Below are positions 1 through 34,913 of a DNA stretch of 42,590 nucleotides, piece after piece. Source of the DNA: Candidatus Nanohalarchaeota archaeon (lineage in GTDB: Archaea; Nanohalarchaeota; Nanosalinia; Nanosalinales; JAFCCC01); the NCBI GenBank assembly GCA_017610385.1, contig JAFCCC010000010.1, positions 1 through 42,590 of the forward strand. Direction: 5' to 3'. The notes below the pieces were generated by a model, which was not told the DNA's origin, searched no databases, and was given only the letters and a program-made list of their open reading frames with translations. How positions within the stretch are numbered: position 1 is the first letter of the stretch; each line of letters begins with the position of its first letter. The position numbers and the translations under genes are program-made.

Positions 1-97
1 CTTTTGTGCAAAAAGCTTATTCGCTTAGGCCTTTACTAAAAAGGCTTAGTGAGTTACACTCGTAACTCGCTGTTTGCTTGAGCTTTGTAAAAGCTCA
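1..97. repeat. Cluster of modular hairpin repeats (modules B, A1, A2 and an A1 variant), truncated by window edge
   Basis: TTCGCTTAGGCCTTTACTAAAAAGGCTTA + GTGAGTTACACTCGTAACTCGCTGTT matches the units at 8029-8183 and 42451-42590; CTTTTGTGCAAAAAGCTTAT matches 7268-7287 and 12696-12715. Confidence 0.9.
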
Positions 98-173: not shown

Positions 174-220
174 GAACTGCTGTCAGTTCGATCAACAGAG
201 CGCGTTATAAATAACGCACT
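174..220. repeat. Hairpin module C plus variant A2 hairpin in the 16S-tRNA-Ala spacer
   Basis: GAACTG-CTGT-CAGTTC then AGCGCGTTA-TAAA-TAACGCACT; same layout at 6504-6554; 23 nt identical (inverted) to 11935-11957. Confidence 0.75.
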
Positions 221-242
221 ACTCTCGTAGTCTGGTTTACTT

Positions 243-6290: not shown

Positions 6291-6352
6291 ACAACAGTAT
6301 AGTTCTGTCTCTTAAATATAGTTTTCGGAAAACTTTTTTCAAAATAAATAGA

Positions 6353-6503
6353 TGCCCCGTCCGGGATTCGAACCCGGGTCGCCGGCTGTCTTTTCAGAAT
6401 CATACCTTTCTAATCGAAAGGCCGGAATGAATTGCCCAACATCCCTCTTAAATCACTTCCTGAAAAGAGGAACTGATGTTTGGCCAGGCTACACTAACGG
6501 GGC
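6353..6503 (-). tRNA. tRNA-Glu(TTC) with two introns: D-loop (~6431-6479, ~49 nt) and 37/38 (6388-6414, 27 nt)
   Basis: Removing both gives GCCCCGTTAGTGTAGCCTGGCCAATCATTCCGGCCTTTCGAGCCGGCGACCCGGGTTCGAATCCCGGACGGGGCA. Confidence 0.9.
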
Positions 6504-6601
6504 AACTGAATTGTCAGTTGACACCAACAGCGAGTTAACCAATTGTTAACTCACCTCAATACTTTCTAATTTTCGCTTAAGCCTTTTATTAAAAAGGCTT
6601 A
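6504..6601. repeat. Hairpin modules C + inverted A2 + A1 in the tRNA-Glu 5' flank
   Basis: AACTGA-ATTG-TCAGTT; AACAGCGAGTTAAC..GTTAACTCAC; TTCGCTTAAGCCTTTTATTAAAAAGGCTTA. Confidence 0.85.
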
Positions 6602-6645
6602 CTTGATAACCATTCTATCATAGATTATTTAAATGTAATTGTGAT

Positions 6646-6954
6646 TCAAGATTTAGAAATATGTTGCTTAATTTCTTCTAAGTCTTTTTCAGTTAATTCA
6701 TAAGCAGTTCCACTAAAGAATCCCTCTTCTATATAAGAATCTCCAAATTCTACTCTTGCTGGTTCAGTTAGTCTTATTTGGACTAGGACACTATATGCAT
6801 CAGCCATAGAGTCATAACTTCCAATCTCTATTGCAATCTCAGAGTAATCATCGCCCAAAATGCCCAATAAGCCATAAGGTCCTTCAATTTCATCTGGCCA
6901 AATATCATCTTTCAGTCTTTCTTGAATATATTTTGCAAGTGCTTCTGGATCCAT
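6646..6954 (-). CDS. Hypothetical acidic protein (~102 aa)
   Basis: Open frame with protein-like D/E-rich composition between two tRNA genes; ATG at 6954 (track starts at 6963). Confidence 0.65.
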   Translation of the reverse strand: MDPEALAKYIQERLKDDIWPDEIEGPYGLLGILGDDYSEIAIEIGSYDSMADAYSVLVQIRLTEPARVEFGDSYIEEGFFSGTAYELTEKDLEEIKQHISKS

Positions 6955-7021
6955 ATTACTCACTATTTACTAGTAGTAGTATTTATTTATAAATACATAT
7001 ATTCTTTAGAATATATATGCA

Positions 7022-7372
7022 TGGGCCAGTCGGGATTTGAACCCGAGTCTACACCAGTTTGTGCGCGGAAGTGTATTTGTTTATTTCGCTTAAGCCTTTA
7101 CTAAAAGGCTTATTTTGCTTGAATTGGAAATATGTTGATTTCCGATTTAGGAAACTTAACAAGTTTCCGTGAGCTTTTATCTGAAAAGCTCATTTTATTT
7201 TCGCTTAAGCCTTTTACTGAAAAGGCTTAGTGGTAACGTACTTTTGCTTAAGATTTTTGCACGTTTACTTTTGTGCAAAAAGCTTATTTTGCTTAAGCTT
7301 TTATTTAAAAAGCTTATGTGCAAAAAGGCGCTCCCCAAGGTGCAATGCTAGTCCGGACTACACCACCGGCCC
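7022..7372 (-). tRNA. tRNA-Pro(GGG) with 276-nt repeat-filled intron at 37/38 (7057-7332)
   Basis: 5' exon GGGCCGGTGGTGTAGTCCGGACTAGCATTGCACCTTGGGG; 3' exon TGGTGTAGACTCGGGTTCAAATCCCGACTGGCCCA; relaxed BHB with GCGC/GCGC outer helix. Confidence 0.88.
7057..7332. repeat. Array of ~7 hairpin modules inside the tRNA-Pro intron
   Basis: A1 at ~7085 and ~7200, A1 variants at 7170 and 7294, B at ~7254, two further hairpins at ~7122 and 7150; 7225-7289 identical to 12653-12717. Confidence 0.9.
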
Positions 7373-7462
7373 ATTAGTTAATTTATTCATCAAATCAATT
7401 ATTGATTTTAAATATGAATCATGTTTGTGAAAGTTATATAGTATTTTAAGTAATTTTAATTT

Positions 7463-7735
7463 ATGCGAAAACACTTAAAAAAAATAAGAAAATCCATAAT
7501 TACAAAAGAAGAATTAATCGCCGACATAATATTTTTAGCGATCTCTGCGTTTGTTTCATTCCTTTTCATCTTTCTATTTGATATTCATCACAGTTTTTAT
7601 GAGTGGCCAATGACTTTGAAGTTTATTTTCAAAACACAGGCACCATATATGTTATTCACACCTATTGGCACGATTGTTGGGTTTATTCTAATAAAATTGC
7701 TCTTGCTTGGATTGAAAGAAGAGGAAAAGCTCTAA
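7463..7735 (+). CDS. Small hypothetical membrane protein (2 TM)
   Basis: 90 aa, two hydrophobic stretches, basic N-terminus. Confidence 0.7.
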   Translation: MRKHLKKIRKSIITKEELIADIIFLAISAFVSFLFIFLFDIHHSFYEWPMTLKFIFKTQAPYMLFTPIGTIVGFILIKLLLLGLKEEEKL

Positions 7736-7798
7736 TGTGCTTATTTCAATCTGAAAAACCTTATTTGATTGTAAACAGCATATTGCAATATAAAAGAT

Positions 7799-7996
7799 TT
7801 AAGCTTTCTTATGTTTAGAAATGTCTTCTAGCAAATCAACTTGGCTTAGAAATGCAGTTCTACAACAATAGCTTTTTATTCCAAGAATATCTAATGCTTC
7901 TTTAGCCGTTTTACCTTGTGATAGATAGTCTTTATATGGCTGCCATTTGTCTCCTATTACTCTCCCACACGTTATACATCTTACTGGAATTATCAT
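7799..7996 (-). CDS. rpoN: RNA polymerase subunit N (Rpo10)
   Basis: MIIPVRCITCG...YCCR; position after rps9. Confidence 0.97.
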   Translation of the reverse strand: MIIPVRCITCGRVIGDKWQPYKDYLSQGKTAKEALDILGIKSYCCRTAFLSQVDLLEDISKHKKA

Positions 7997-8005
7997 TTTG
8001 ACCTC

Positions 8006-8183
8006 TGAGCTGCAGTCAGCTCAATTTCATTTTGGCTTAAGCCTTTTATTAAAAAGGCTTAGTGAGTTACACTCGTAACTCGCTGTTAAATTTTGGCTTA
8101 AGCCTTTTATTAAAAAGGCTTAGTGAGTTACACTCGTAACTCGCTGTTAAATTTTGGCTTAAGCCTTTTATTAAAAAGGCTTA
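8006..8183. repeat. Module C variant + tandem 61-bp two-hairpin repeat (2.5 copies)
   Basis: Units start at 8029, 8090 and 8151 and are identical; each is TAAGCCTTTT-ATTA-AAAAGGCTTA + GTGAGTTAC-ACTC-GTAACTCGC. Confidence 0.95.
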
Positions 8184-8573
8184 CCTATATGATTTCTGTC
8201 TCTTATGCCTTGGCCCTTTAGAACTTTGACTTGGTTTATGTACCTCTGTTCTTCTTGAATCCTCTACCAATAAGTTCCGATCATAAGCCAAAAATTTATT
8301 TTTCAAATTTTCATCTTTTGTATATTCTAAAAGTGCTCGTGCAATAGCTAATCTAACTGCTTCTGCCTGACCCATTTGTCCGCCACCAGTCACATTAGCA
8401 CGAATATCCACGTTAGTGATGCCAGATAACCTTAGTGGTTCTAAAATCATTAATTGCAAGTAATGTGGCCAGTTTTCTAAAGATTCCTTATTAATGCTAA
8501 TTTTTCCAGTTCCTTCCTTTACTGTCACCCGTGCTTTCGCAGTTTTTCGTTTTCCAACACTAAATACTACCAT
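8181..8573 (-). CDS. rps9: 30S ribosomal protein S9
   Basis: GKRKTAKAR, GGGQMGQAEAVRLAIARAL, QKSYR C-terminus. Confidence 0.98.
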   Translation of the reverse strand: MVVFSVGKRKTAKARVTVKEGTGKISINKESLENWPHYLQLMILEPLRLSGITNVDIRANVTGGGQMGQAEAVRLAIARALLEYTKDENLKNKFLAYDRNLLVEDSRRTEVHKPSQSSKGPRHKRQKSYR

Positions 8574-8986
8574 TATAACGTCACCTTTGATCCCAAATGT
8601 TTTGAAATTTCACCTAATTTAACATAACGTCCTTTCCTTAATTTATGTTCAATATTAAAACTATCTATTTTTTCATTCAAATATTGTTCAGGAATAGATC
8701 TAAAAACTTTTAATTGACTTAAGCATTTTCTTCCTCGTCTGTTTTTTGGCAACATTCCACGCACACATCTCTTCATAATTCGTTCAGGCGCTCTCGGAAA
8801 AAAAGGTCCGGTATGTCTCTGACCTCTATCAAATTTCTTTTTGTATTCTGTTTGCAACTGAACTTTTTCACCAGAAACAATTGATTCTTGTGCATTAAGA
8901 ACTATGATTTCAGTGCCTTTCTGCAGTTCTTTAGCTAATTCACTTGAAAATCGTCCTAGTATTTGATTTTTCGCATCTAATATCAT
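8573..8986 (-). CDS. rpl13: 50S ribosomal protein L13
   Basis: ILDAKNQILGR, VRGMLP; synteny. Confidence 0.97.
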   Translation of the reverse strand: MILDAKNQILGRFSSELAKELQKGTEIIVLNAQESIVSGEKVQLQTEYKKKFDRGQRHTGPFFPRAPERIMKRCVRGMLPKNRRGRKCLSQLKVFRSIPEQYLNEKIDSFNIEHKLRKGRYVKLGEISKHLGSKVTL

Positions 8987-12627: not shown

Positions 12628-12788
12628 TTTGCGTTTACTTTTGCAAAAAAAAGCTTAGTGGTAACGTACTTTTGCTTAAGATTTTTGCACGTTTACTTTT
12701 GTGCAAAAAGCTTATTTGCAAAAAAAGGCTATGCGGAAGCGTATTTTTCCCTAGGGTTTTTTTGCGTTTACTTTTGCAAAAAAAGGCT
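12628..12788. repeat. Module B repeat cluster abutting the tRNA-Ser 3' end
   Basis: Three copies of TTTGC(AC)GTTTACTTTT(GT)GCAAAA; 65 bp identical to the tRNA-Pro intron. Confidence 0.9.
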
Positions 12789-33027: not shown

Positions 33028-34485
33028 CTACCCTTTAATAGAAATCAGTGGCTTAACACGAGCCACTTTTAAGGCGATACCGGAATTATGCATAACATCA
33101 ACAACATCAGTCGCATCTTTGTAGGCGCCAGGTGCCTCTTCTGAAATCCCCGAGAAACTATGACCCCGAATTATAATTCCTTTCTTTTCCAAATCTTTTA
33201 AAAGATCTTCTGCTCTCCATGTTTTTTTAGCTTGCATTCTAGACATGTTTCTTCCTGCACCATGAATCGCAGATCCAAAAGTGTCATCCATTCCTTTTTG
33301 AGTACCATGCAAAATGTATGAACAAGTACCCATAGTTCCTCCAACTAAAACTGGTTGACCGATTTTTCTATACTCTCTAGGTACTTCTTTTCTTCCAGGA
33401 CCAAACGCCCGAGTAGCACCTTTTCTTAAAACTAACAGTTCCTTATTCTTTCCATTTATAGAATGTTTTTCTAATTTTGCAGTATTATGCCCAACTTCAT
33501 AAAATGTTTCAATTTCAGTTTCATCAATTCCAAAAACTCTAGAAGTTGTTTCTCTTGCTAAATGAGCTAAAACTTGTCTATTTGCAAAAGCACAATTAGT
33601 ACCGCAATTAACCGCACTAAAATATTTTTGTCCTTCTTCGCTTTGAATGGGTGCACAAACCAATTCCCTTTCTCTAATTGGAATTTTATATTTCAAACTT
33701 GCTTCATGAAGTTCTTTCAAGTAATCTGTTCCTATCTGATGTCCTAAGGCTCGTGAGCCACAATGTAATGAAATTAAAATCTGACCTTTTTCTAACCCAT
33801 AAATCCTAGCAGCGTCTTCATCAAATATTTCGTCAACGTATTGAATTTCTAGGTAATGATTTCCAGAACCCAGCGTTCCAATTTGCTTGAATTGTCGTCT
33901 TTTAGCTAAATCACTTACAACTCCAGGATCTGAATTTTTCACTTTTCCATTATTTTCTATAAAATTCAAATCCCCTTTGATTCCATATCCCCTTTCAATA
34001 GAATATTCTGCACCTTTTACTAAAACCTCATCAATCTGATCTTTAGTTAACCTTATTTTTCCAGTAGAGCCCAATCCCGCAGGAATAGTTCTAAATAATT
34101 CTTCTGCAAAACTCTTTTTTTTCTTTTCCACGTCTTCCTTTTTTAATGTAGTTCTAAGAGTTCTGACGCCGCAATTTATGTCAAACCCAACGCCTGCAAC
34201 GCTTATAACTCCTTTTTCAATATCAAATGCACCTACACCCCCAATCGGAAAACCATACCCAGGATGAACGTCACTCATCGCCATAGCTGCTTTTTGAATT
34301 CCAGGCAAACACGCCACATTAGCAATTTGTTTTAATGCATTCCATTCTTTACCTGCTTTAAGATCGTCTACTAAATGAGCTATGATTCCTTTATTTCCAT
34401 AAATTCTTCCTGGAACCAACATATCCTCCATTTTTGGGATTTCATATACATATTCTGAAATTTTTTTTACAGTAATTTCCCCCAC
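33028..34485 (-). CDS. rtcB: RNA-splicing ligase RtcB
   Basis: DVHPGYGFPIGG, GFDINCG, GSGNHYLE, HCGSR, HNTAK, HGAGR, EEAPGAYK; GTG at 34485 is the likely start. Confidence 0.97.
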   Translation of the reverse strand: MGEITVKKISEYVYEIPKMEDMLVPGRIYGNKGIIAHLVDDLKAGKEWNALKQIANVACLPGIQKAAMAMSDVHPGYGFPIGGVGAFDIEKGVISVAGVGFDINCGVRTLRTTLKKEDVEKKKKSFAEELFRTIPAGLGSTGKIRLTKDQIDEVLVKGAEYSIERGYGIKGDLNFIENNGKVKNSDPGVVSDLAKRRQFKQIGTLGSGNHYLEIQYVDEIFDEDAARIYGLEKGQILISLHCGSRALGHQIGTDYLKELHEASLKYKIPIRERELVCAPIQSEEGQKYFSAVNCGTNCAFANRQVLAHLARETTSRVFGIDETEIETFYEVGHNTAKLEKHSINGKNKELLVLRKGATRAFGPGRKEVPREYRKIGQPVLVGGTMGTCSYILHGTQKGMDDTFGSAIHGAGRNMSRMQAKKTWRAEDLLKDLEKKGIIIRGHSFSGISEEAPGAYKDATDVVDVMHNSGIALKVARVKPLISIKG

Positions 34486-34493
34486 AATATCAC

Positions 34494-34913
34494 CTATATA
34501 TCCAATACACATCGCACATAATATTTAGTATCTCTTTTTTTAACTCTTAACCCAGAATAAGTTGCAGCTTTTACTTCAGTTTTAATTCCATGTTTGTTCT
34601 GATCTAATTTTTCTCCATATGCTTTGCCTAATAATTCCAAATGACCCCGACTATTCATTATAGTAATTTCAAACTTTGAAAATAACATGTTTTCAATGCC
34701 CGCTTTTCCCAACAATTCATTTAAAAATTCCACGAAAAGCGTTTCAATATCTCTAGCAGAACAGAATAATTTTACAGGAACTTTCGACTTAACAGTGTTT
34801 ATTTCACACATTACATTAAACATTGCTTTAGCGCCCTCTGTGAATGCTTCCTCTAAAGATATACCAATTCCTTCTATTCCAATATCTGCTTCATGTTCTA
34901 AATATCTGTACAT
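34494..34913 (-). CDS. Archease (RtcB cofactor)
   Basis: YLEHEADIG, EVKAATY, C-terminal LDI; adjacent to rtcB. Confidence 0.95.
   Translation of the reverse strand: MYRYLEHEADIGIEGIGISLEEAFTEGAKAMFNVMCEINTVKSKVPVKLFCSARDIETLFVEFLNELLGKAGIENMLFSKFEITIMNSRGHLELLGKAYGEKLDQNKHGIKTEVKAATYSGLRVKKRDTKYYVRCVLDI

Follow-up and report, generated by a model that had tools for sequence, protein, structure and literature searches.

Introns of archaeal tRNA genes are generally short, ranging from 11 to 129 nt with a median of 12–25 nt in the compilation of a 2014 review (PMC4090602, available in part). In Thermoproteales, families of introns are common to different tRNA types, and the accessible text of the same review gives the mechanism of their transposition as unknown; the route by which introns arrive is likewise called open in the accessible part of a 2026 Asgard preprint. 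Circular tRNA introns were recovered from every archaeon reanalysed in a further study (PMC12558985, also available in part). Here we describe a tRNA-Pro(GGG) gene at positions 7022–7372 of contig JAFCCC010000010.1 from a Candidatus Nanohalarchaeota archaeon, the whole 42,590 nt of which were analysed and are called the window below. The gene is split by 276 nt, most of which belongs to a family of hairpin repeats that is dispersed through the genome, preferentially at tRNA genes, and is shared with a second archaeal phylum. With moderate confidence, we read the locus as a functional tRNA whose intron represents an intron-forming element, mobile and shared horizontally, that has expanded into multiple copies.

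The window is contig C9 of a 788-kb genome in 18 contigs (32% GC, 84% coding, 93.5% complete). C-numbers denote contigs of this genome, itself G000, and L-numbers are loci examined around matches to the hairpin pattern.

The tRNA-Pro(GGG) gene and its predicted splicing

The gene, its bulge-helix-bulge (BHB) splice motif and two of the enzymes concerned are located in the window as follows.

7333–7372, minus strand: 5′ exon of tRNA-Pro(GGG), 40 nt, tRNA positions 1–37, anticodon GGG at 7336–7334 (ARAGORN and joined exons)
7057–7332, minus strand: intron at canonical position 37/38, 276 nt (ARAGORN with introns; fold z −8.2)
7022–7056, minus strand: 3′ exon of tRNA-Pro(GGG), 35 nt, positions 38–73, discriminator A at 7022
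7328–7338, minus strand: 5′ half of the BHB, with UUGG central strand 7338–7335, bulge GG^A 7334–7332 and outer GCGC 7331–7328
7056–7066, minus strand: 3′ half of the BHB, with outer GCGC 7066–7063, ACAA 7062–7059 (A7062 opposite G35) and bulge AC^U 7058–7056
33028–34512, minus strand: RtcB tRNA-splicing ligase
34494–34913, minus strand: archease, the RtcB cofactor

Read along the minus strand, 7372–7022 runs GGGCCGG...TTGGGG, 276 nt, TGGTGT...GGCCCA. When introns are allowed (-i0,400), ARAGORN calls tRNA-Pro(ggg) at c[7021,7373] and places the 276-nt intron after G37 of the anticodon loop. On removal of the intron, the exons, joined by script, form a canonical tRNA-Pro(GGG) cloverleaf in which all four stems pair, the 7-nt loop reads UUGGGGU and the discriminator is A, and the splice points are unambiguous because shifting them alters the product. 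The initial annotation had described tRNA-Pro exons split at 37/38 by 276 nt, a relaxed BHB (GG^A and AC^U bulges, a UUGG/ACAA helix with one G-A mismatch, a GCGC/GCGC outer helix) and rtcB with archease at 33028–34913; its coordinates, arithmetic and motif all proved correct, for a gene on the minus strand.

The motif consists, in order, of the anticodon stem with five of five pairs, the bulge AC^U, the central positions U32-A, U33-A, G34-C and G35.A, the bulge GG^A, and GCGC/GCGC. The hBHBh′ geometry is exact, the inner helix being paired at 5/5 positions, the outer at 4/4 and the central at 3/4 plus the G.A; the outer helix is all GC within an intron of 33% GC. A blind scan of 7000–7400 for this layout, with one central mismatch allowed, returned exactly these cuts and an excised length of 276 nt. 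Both the splicing endonuclease and the RtcB ligase are encoded in the genome, as is archease. EndA is the product of a single gene at C13:61352–61897 (181 aa, both Pfam domains) and differs from the M. jannaschii enzyme (1a79) in having seven additional residues, rich in Lys, between its catalytic Tyr and His; in the alignment they coincide with inserts that ARMAN-2 (4fz2) and N. equitans (3iey_A) also have. Loop inserts of that kind are linked to relaxed substrate specificity in the accessible part of PMC5829648, and the insert seen here may confer the same property. Given the known chemistry of EndA and RtcB, release of the intron as a circular RNA would be a reasonable expectation.

An intron of this size raises the possibility that the gene is decaying or silent, an old intron having been flooded by repeats while CCY codons are read by an unassembled copy or by tRNA-Pro(UGG). 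At 276 nt the intron exceeds the longest in the 2014 compilation, 129 nt, by a factor of more than two (PMC4090602; newer data may hold longer introns), it contains three T5 runs, its central BHB helix has a G.A, and the genome is incomplete. Against decay, both exons are intact with every stem paired, and the private intron ends keep a GC-rich BHB of the same quality as those of other introns in the genome, the identical G35.A beside the 5′ bulge being present, among introns with a fully paired inner helix, in those of Ala-CGC, Pro-CGG and Thr-CGU. No second GGG gene occurs among 37 ARAGORN calls and 31 Rfam tRNA matches, leaving aside one gene labelled Pro(agg) that is considered below, and the corresponding codons are in regular use: CCU and CCC account for 2737 of 198889 codons in 555 long open reading frames (ORFs), with CCU alone at 10.3 per 1000. 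We consider decay decidedly unlikely, and 7372–7022 is most likely a working tRNA-Pro(GGG) gene, the sole clear one in the assembly. Relatives are uninformative on orthology: the three in which Pro-GGG was identified have no intron in it, and Pro-CGG has unrelated introns of 112 and 67 nt in two others.

The first T5 run closely follows the 5′ half, seven nucleotides into the spacer, and could be taken as the end of a separately transcribed half that is joined to its partner in trans; split tRNAs exist in other small-genome archaea. Here, however, the halves lie in cis, in order and 276 nt apart, which is not the arrangement of a split tRNA; the spacer ends are complementary over 4 bp only, far too short for pairing in trans; and no TATA-like promoter precedes the 3′ half, as judged by eye. 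A split tRNA is barely credible.

By default, ARAGORN finds four tRNAs in the window, tRNA-Pro(GGG) not among them, and the Rfam tRNA model misses the gene both at its gathering score and at E ≤ 10. Default tRNA finders overlook this gene, and missing-tRNA calls in DPANN genomes may reflect introns of this type. Only about 40 tRNA genes are detectable genome-wide (the 40 used here are the 37 ARAGORN calls, introns allowed, plus three Rfam extras) and at least a dozen expected anticodons go undetected; relative to the usual archaeal set, these are Met, Glu, Asp, Gln, Val-GAC, Ile-GAU, Thr-GGU/UGU, Lys-CUU and others. Many are probably hidden by multiple or non-canonical introns, like those of the multi-intron Gly and Tyr genes of L013–L044.

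The intron and its hairpin family in this genome

The fold of the intron is a series of seven hairpins enclosed by the terminal GCGC/GCGC helix (minimum free energy, MFE, −79.3 kcal/mol; z −8.2; 0 of 200 dinucleotide shuffles as good). Hairpin modules make up 238 of the 276 nt (86%), and nearly all of this recurs elsewhere in the genome. From 5′ to 3′ the components are these, with copies counted genome-wide at ≤10% substitutions.

7317–7332, minus strand: unique 5′ frame, 16 nt, no other copy in the genome
7287–7316, minus strand: H1, A-variant hairpin, TAAGCT... with AAGCAAAA tail; 3 copies, one in the Pro-CGG intron
7230–7286, minus strand: H2, long hairpin F with a 12-nt linker; F core 7 copies, linker 4
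7193–7229, minus strand: H3, core A hairpin TAAGCCTTTT-loop-AAAAGGCTTA with AAGCGAAAA tail; 10 copies; homologous to the element of the other phylum
7113–7192, minus strand: H4-H5-H6, composite block of hairpins C, D and E; C and D 8 copies each
7079–7112, minus strand: H7, short A hairpin with AAGCGAAA tail; 2 copies
7057–7078, minus strand: unique 3′ frame, 22 nt

The C-D-E block is repeated in the same order at C3:1–113, at C6:1–113, on C12 and three times on C11, and in antisense within the tRNA-Trp intron on C13. The E hairpin has no copy other than that of the intron at this threshold (its loop differs), yet it falls within block matches of 95–96% to other arrays. Longer matches follow the same pattern: intron nucleotides 44–113 (7220–7289) are 98.6% identical to C9:12648–12717, immediately 3′ of tRNA-Ser(UGA), nucleotides 101–249 are 95.3% identical to C12:2–150, and nucleotides 137–249 are 96.5% identical to C3:1–113 and C6:1–113, both of which are contig ends. 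The intron is therefore a mosaic copied from, or common with, sister arrays. Its private frame, an initial A followed by GCGC...GCGC-ACAA-AC, resembles the ends of the 52-nt tRNA-Ser(UGA) intron, A followed by GCGC...GCGC-CAAC-UU, and this resemblance fits an ordinary short intron that would have been stuffed with modules later.

On the sense strand of the intron, no ORF exceeds 47 aa. Rfam, run over 6900–7500 at E ≤ 10, yields no known RNA family for the intron and chance-level matches only, those of small nucleolar RNA type lying far below gathering scores and on the opposite strand, so that box C/D character is not apparent. Nested BHBs inside the intron were considered and rejected, as 39 loose motifs against 19.5 in shuffles (maximum 43) is not significant.

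An iterated BLAST census of the genome identified 25 family loci totalling 3012 bp on seven contigs, modules being present on six contigs besides the window; this is a lower bound, since six contig ends stop inside arrays. All loci are non-coding (overlap with the ORF mask never above 2%), and blocks are 94–100% identical between copies, giving a family of many near-identical, dispersed, non-coding repeats. For 15 of the 25, a tRNA gene either contains the locus or is no more than 150 nt away, where random non-coding placement gives a mean of 2.66 and a maximum of 9 in 2000 trials. Given this roughly 5.6-fold excess, survival in free space does not by itself seem sufficient to explain the distribution. 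The tie to tRNA genes could have two causes, selection (survival where RNA processing removes or tolerates copies in an 84%-coding genome) or targeting, which are inseparable here.

Thirteen of the 15 tRNA-linked loci are oriented in the tRNA sense, and copies are found in introns, in 3′ trailers and in 5′ leaders; most tRNAs of the genome lack the family. It fills four further introns called by ARAGORN. In two of these it is antisense, the 177-nt intron of Trp on C13 and the 79-nt intron of Gly-GCC; the others are the 151-nt intron of Pro-CGG and the 53-nt intron of Gly-UCC, a weak call whose cloverleaf is irregular and whose 27.8 bits in Rfam fall short of the gathering score. The genome has two genes for tRNA-Trp(CCA), at C13:67127–67376 and C17:23520–23757, whose introns of 177 and 167 nt both carry family hairpins in antisense, that of the second being B-like; no box C/D match was seen in the tRNA-Trp loci scanned. 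Hairpins begin 0–6 nt past the 3′ ends of seven tRNAs, and an A-B unit begins 2 nt past the tRNA at C6:4145–4296. Two arrays start on the stop codon of the upstream ORF (S9 and another ORF), the TAA of TAAGCC being the stop. Beyond the intron, the window holds the following copies.

8018–8184, minus strand: three tandem A-B units with a 61-nt period, between the genes for ribosomal protein S9 and rpoN, starting on the S9 stop
12628–12788, minus strand: family array beginning 1 nt past the 3′ end of tRNA-Ser(UGA)
6567–6605, minus strand: single A module, 63 nt upstream of the ARAGORN-called tRNA-Phe(GAA), 6351–6504
1–79, minus strand: family array 21 nt downstream of the rRNA-operon tRNA-Ala(UGC), running off the contig end
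42443–42590, minus strand: A-B array running off the other contig end

The initial annotation's statements hold that the intron contains about seven consecutive hairpins, that its modules also occur outside tRNAs in the window and that it has no credible ORF. Its proposal of a non-coding selfish repeat using introns as a safe harbour is sustained in part: a dispersed family does fill the intron, but the repeat is not a generic one, since its core is homologous to an element found mostly within tRNA genes in another phylum and the family is attached to tRNA genes. The better fit is an expanded mobile element that forms introns.

Repeats of this kind might also mislead an assembler, so that part of the intron content would be artefact, the exon halves being truly adjacent and the number or order of modules invented or collapsed. 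Six contig ends break inside the family, exact repeats of 65, 59, 49 and 48 nt are common to the intron and other loci, and a search of sequencing runs for the locus listed two DNA runs (shares 0.08 and 0.05) and no RNA run, of which X1 covers 6747–6964 only and X2 provides a 261-nt contig that resembles 7085–7286 and continues into a different array. Yet private sequence spans the junctions from exon to frame and from frame to first and last module, the exons are correctly ordered and oriented and their BHB halves match, the shared exact repeats are shorter than a typical 100–150-nt read, and four other ARAGORN-called introns, on other contigs, carry the family. We hold it very unlikely that the intron owes part of its content to assembly.

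Several further features of the arrays were recorded. In the window at 7799–8986, a conserved L13-S9-RpoN cluster is split by the A-B array, with about 25 nt left before the rpoN start codon, so that transcription must pass through the hairpins unless the array itself provides a promoter. At 1–1748, 16S rRNA and tRNA-Ala(UGC) are followed by the hairpin array and then by the contig end, where 23S rRNA is expected; the rRNA operon was probably broken in assembly by the repeat family. Four or five tRNAs share a conserved 5′ leader of about 50 nt (window 6505–6565 at tRNA-Phe, C10:10192+, C11:122230+, C13:47548–47607 and partly window 174–235), laid out as a reverse-complement B hairpin (GTGAGTTA..TAACTCGCTGTT), GGTG...CTGACA and a small covarying hairpin ending exactly at tRNA +1; a shared leader without a TATA-like box suggests co-transcription and a processing signal. 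An rRNA-like processing stem between leader (reverse-complement B) and trailer (B) was rejected, no single tRNA having both. A CRISPR-like reading of hairpin plus GAAAAC tail was set aside because the array 'spacers' are identical repeats; cas genes were not searched.

Copies in a second phylum and the question of mobility

In its own phylum the family appears confined to this genome: the A hairpin at ≤2 mismatches has 18 matches in G000 and none in 69 other genomes (all of one order), and whole-gene BLAST against 40 same-order genomes gave tRNA exon matches only, with no repeats. Exact matches to the hairpin pattern of 23 fixed bases come from 22 contigs of metagenomes and 11 of species genomes; several of these contigs are titled Candidatus Aenigmatarchaeota. 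In the phylum of one carrier genome, 14 of 371 genomes contain the pattern at ≤1 mismatch, with 1–4 matches each (a palindromic site may count on both strands). The own-phylum genomes G000–G069 are absent from the list of 371; the carriers therefore belong to two different phyla. The A pattern was found in no viral contig and the exact D-E module in no metagenome contig, and Rfam scans gave no known family for the element of the other phylum.

That element is a unit of about 55 nt comprising hairpin 1, AAGCGAAAAC (or AAGCCAAAA) and hairpin 2, with which the A-B unit of the window (core 10-bp hairpin, AAGCGAAAA tail, second hairpin) aligns. Hairpin 2 has one covarying pair, paired in 13 of 16 copies (C-G 5, G-C 5, A-U 3) and unpaired in three. 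A second pairing model, AAGCG/CGCUU, was discarded on an alignment read by eye, in which variants break rather than compensate it. In some copies from other organisms the tail reads AAGCCAAAA(A)GGAG, and the covarying stem after it is longer.

Most copies outside this genome are associated with tRNA genes. At 6 of 33 loci the element falls inside a tRNA intron called by ARAGORN, in genes for Trp, Gly (three, one of these loci being present twice) and Ser (one), and an Rfam tRNA match spans it at 3 of the 14 loci scanned. Multi-intron tRNA genes evade both programs, so most placements rest on inspection: at most of the remaining loci a tRNA exon abuts the element, which lies at 37/38 in Gly and Asp, in the T-loop at six or more loci, and in the D-loop of an rRNA-operon tRNA-Ala, some copies being antisense. 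Closely similar introns thus occur in different tRNA types and positions, in this genome in Pro-GGG, Pro-CGG, Trp, Gly-GCC and Gly-UCC and in others at 37/38 of Gly, Ser and Trp (ARAGORN) and of Asp, and in the T- and D-loops (inspection). In L018 the Trp intron called by ARAGORN is 216 nt long. A small number of copies lie between genes or in tandem; tandem arrays occur in L030:24–200, and in L017 and L038 copies stand right after ORF ends (the TAA of TAAGCC following ..ATG or ..TTA).

One copy is associated with a different structured RNA. L031:7402–7781 matches archaeal RNase P RNA (50.6 bits, E 5e-13, below the gathering score) with the element inside at 7449–7475, which perhaps accounts for the low score; this would be a BHB-type insertion in RNase P RNA. 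By inspection, L045 has the same flanking sequence (the scan was of L031 only). The RNase P RNA of the window's own genome is uninterrupted (C6:3321–3594).

Position within introns is also regular. An A precedes TAAGCC in 23 of 30 distinct copies, and in canonical introns hairpin 1 starts at intron nucleotide 2, where the outer BHB helix also starts; the Pro-CGG intron of the window's genome is built likewise.

Alternatively, the hairpins might be RNA elements that serve the host, as processing, stability or termination signals at the 3′ ends of tRNAs and mRNAs, the Pro-intron copies being a by-product or a regulated feature; REP elements of bacteria, for example, protect upstream mRNA. The predominance of the sense orientation would suit such a role, as would the positions immediately after tRNA 3′ ends and on stop codons, the hairpin-plus-T-tract sites in 6300–8300 (seven against 1.1 expected) and a stem sequence strongly conserved across phyla. 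A sporadic spread (1 of 70 and 14 of 371 genomes) is unlike that of an essential host signal, however. Both orientations occur inside introns, the genome has 18 pattern matches where others have 1–4 while most of its tRNAs do without the family, and a terminator within an essential tRNA would do harm. A host signal is on the whole unlikely.

No mover has been found for the family. Three tyrosine recombinases are encoded in the genome with no evident link to it; their known positions include C14:23213–24004, near tRNA-Ile c[24432,24524], and C3:1555–2031, about 1.4 kb from the contig-end array, and these genes may represent an integrated element or XerA. As movers they were set aside, the 4-nt hairpin spacer appearing unlike a recombinase core site. 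Within the genome, block-wise identity between arrays points to local expansion by recombination or gene conversion.

A number of points weigh against a functional gene expanded by a mobile element. The central BHB helix contains a G.A mismatch and is left unformed in the RNAfold MFE structure. With three T5 and three T4 runs on its sense strand and none of six or more, the intron could terminate archaeal RNA polymerase; ORFs, however, contain T≥5 runs at a density of 3.0 per kb, and the polymerase must therefore often read through them. Another reader of CCY may exist in the tRNA at C6:4145–4296 (L058:47–196), which Rfam recognises at 41.9 bits and to which ARAGORN assigns the label Pro(agg), a 67-nt intron and an odd long variable region. 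A second Pro-GGG gene could also be unassembled at 93.5% completeness. In the runs examined no read or independent contig spans the locus, and with short-k assembly the internal order and number of modules could be wrong. A genome search for a transposase-like partner found no Y1/RAYT and no reverse transcriptase (DDE families were not searched) and a TnpB zinc-ribbon match below threshold only; by eye, and with no systematic search, neither terminal inverted repeats nor target duplications were made out. Covariation in hairpin 2 is limited to a single pair, and hairpin 1 is invariant by design of the search. It is the distribution of the family, then, from which we infer mobility.

A candidate introner and its relation to known systems

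If the gene is functional and the family mobile, events might be reconstructed as follows. The gene would be transcribed as a 351-nt precursor in which the intron ends pair as GCGC/GCGC and the 3′ intron tail pairs with anticodon-loop nucleotides 32–35, an arrangement that would present two 3-nt bulges to EndA; RtcB and archease would then join the exons and probably circularise the intron. The 38-nt private frame would have received its 238 nt of modules in blocks copied from sister arrays, likely by slippage between the palindromic repeats or else by recombination or gene conversion. Units in the other phylum sit singly within tRNA genes, with hairpin 1 where the outer BHB helix must start, while in this genome the family would have multiplied and settled wherever RNA processing removes or tolerates it, in introns, trailers and leaders and after stop codons.

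More tentatively still, and with doubt prevailing, the two-hairpin element of about 55–60 nt could be a true 'introner' of the BHB system: it would insert in or beside structured-RNA genes, bring an outer helix flush with the 5′ splice site, be removable by EndA and RtcB, move between DPANN phyla and have formed runaway arrays in this genome. If so, it would provide the first identifiable donor pool, and a structural rationale, for the gain of archaeal tRNA introns. One family is found in three states, as single-unit introns in one phylum, as free copies in intergenic regions and tRNA flanks, and as stacked introns of up to 276 nt in another phylum, which makes intron gain directly testable through filled and empty sites and may help to show how archaeal introns arise.

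In the literature searched, supplementary files aside, there is no prior description of a repeat-built archaeal intron, nor did we find described free copies outside RNA genes, multi-unit stacking to more than twice 129 nt or sharing between phyla. The available parts of PMC4090602 and of the 2026 Asgard preprint do not mention an intergenic donor pool for the families of Thermoproteales.

Bacterial repetitive extragenic palindromic elements and their interspersed mosaics (REP/BIME), and miniature inverted-repeat transposable elements (MITEs), resemble the family in their short palindromic hairpins, clustered arrays, intergenic or 3′-of-gene sites and many near-identical copies. They differ in that here no RAYT/Y1 was found, no terminal inverted repeats or target duplications were seen by eye (so that none of the hallmarks of a MITE- or REP-like mover, a cognate transposase included, was identified), the host is archaeal, and copies form spliceable introns in structured-RNA genes. 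Eukaryotic introners are transposon-derived spliceosomal introns, and the likeness is one of concept, a mobile non-coding element that would be tolerated since host splicing removes it, creating introns; here the agent would be EndA at a BHB rather than the spliceosome, and the hosts are tRNA and RNase P RNA, not mRNA. Both likenesses are analogies and not membership. The tRNA-Trp introns that carry a box C/D guide RNA are similarly long, structured and functional-looking, and theirs are released and circularised, whereas the Pro-GGG intron consists of a repeat family rather than a single guide and has no credible C/D match.

The closest relationships are archaeal. Compared with known BHB introns at 37/38, which EndA, RtcB and archease process, this one has the same position, two 3-nt bulges around a four-position helix, flanking helices, the enzymes and no ORF; it differs in its 276 nt, its central G.A and its concatenated dispersed repeats. 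The transposing families of Thermoproteales (Fujishima et al. 2010, as cited in PMC4090602 and the 2026 Asgard preprint) are alike also in that their mechanism is given as unknown. Unlike them, the present family is found in trailers and leaders, in spacers between cistrons, as tandem arrays and in a match to RNase P RNA; it stacks several units in one intron and spans two phyla. The gene belongs with the archaeal tRNAs that have BHB introns, and the family behaves like the transposing introns of Thermoproteales.

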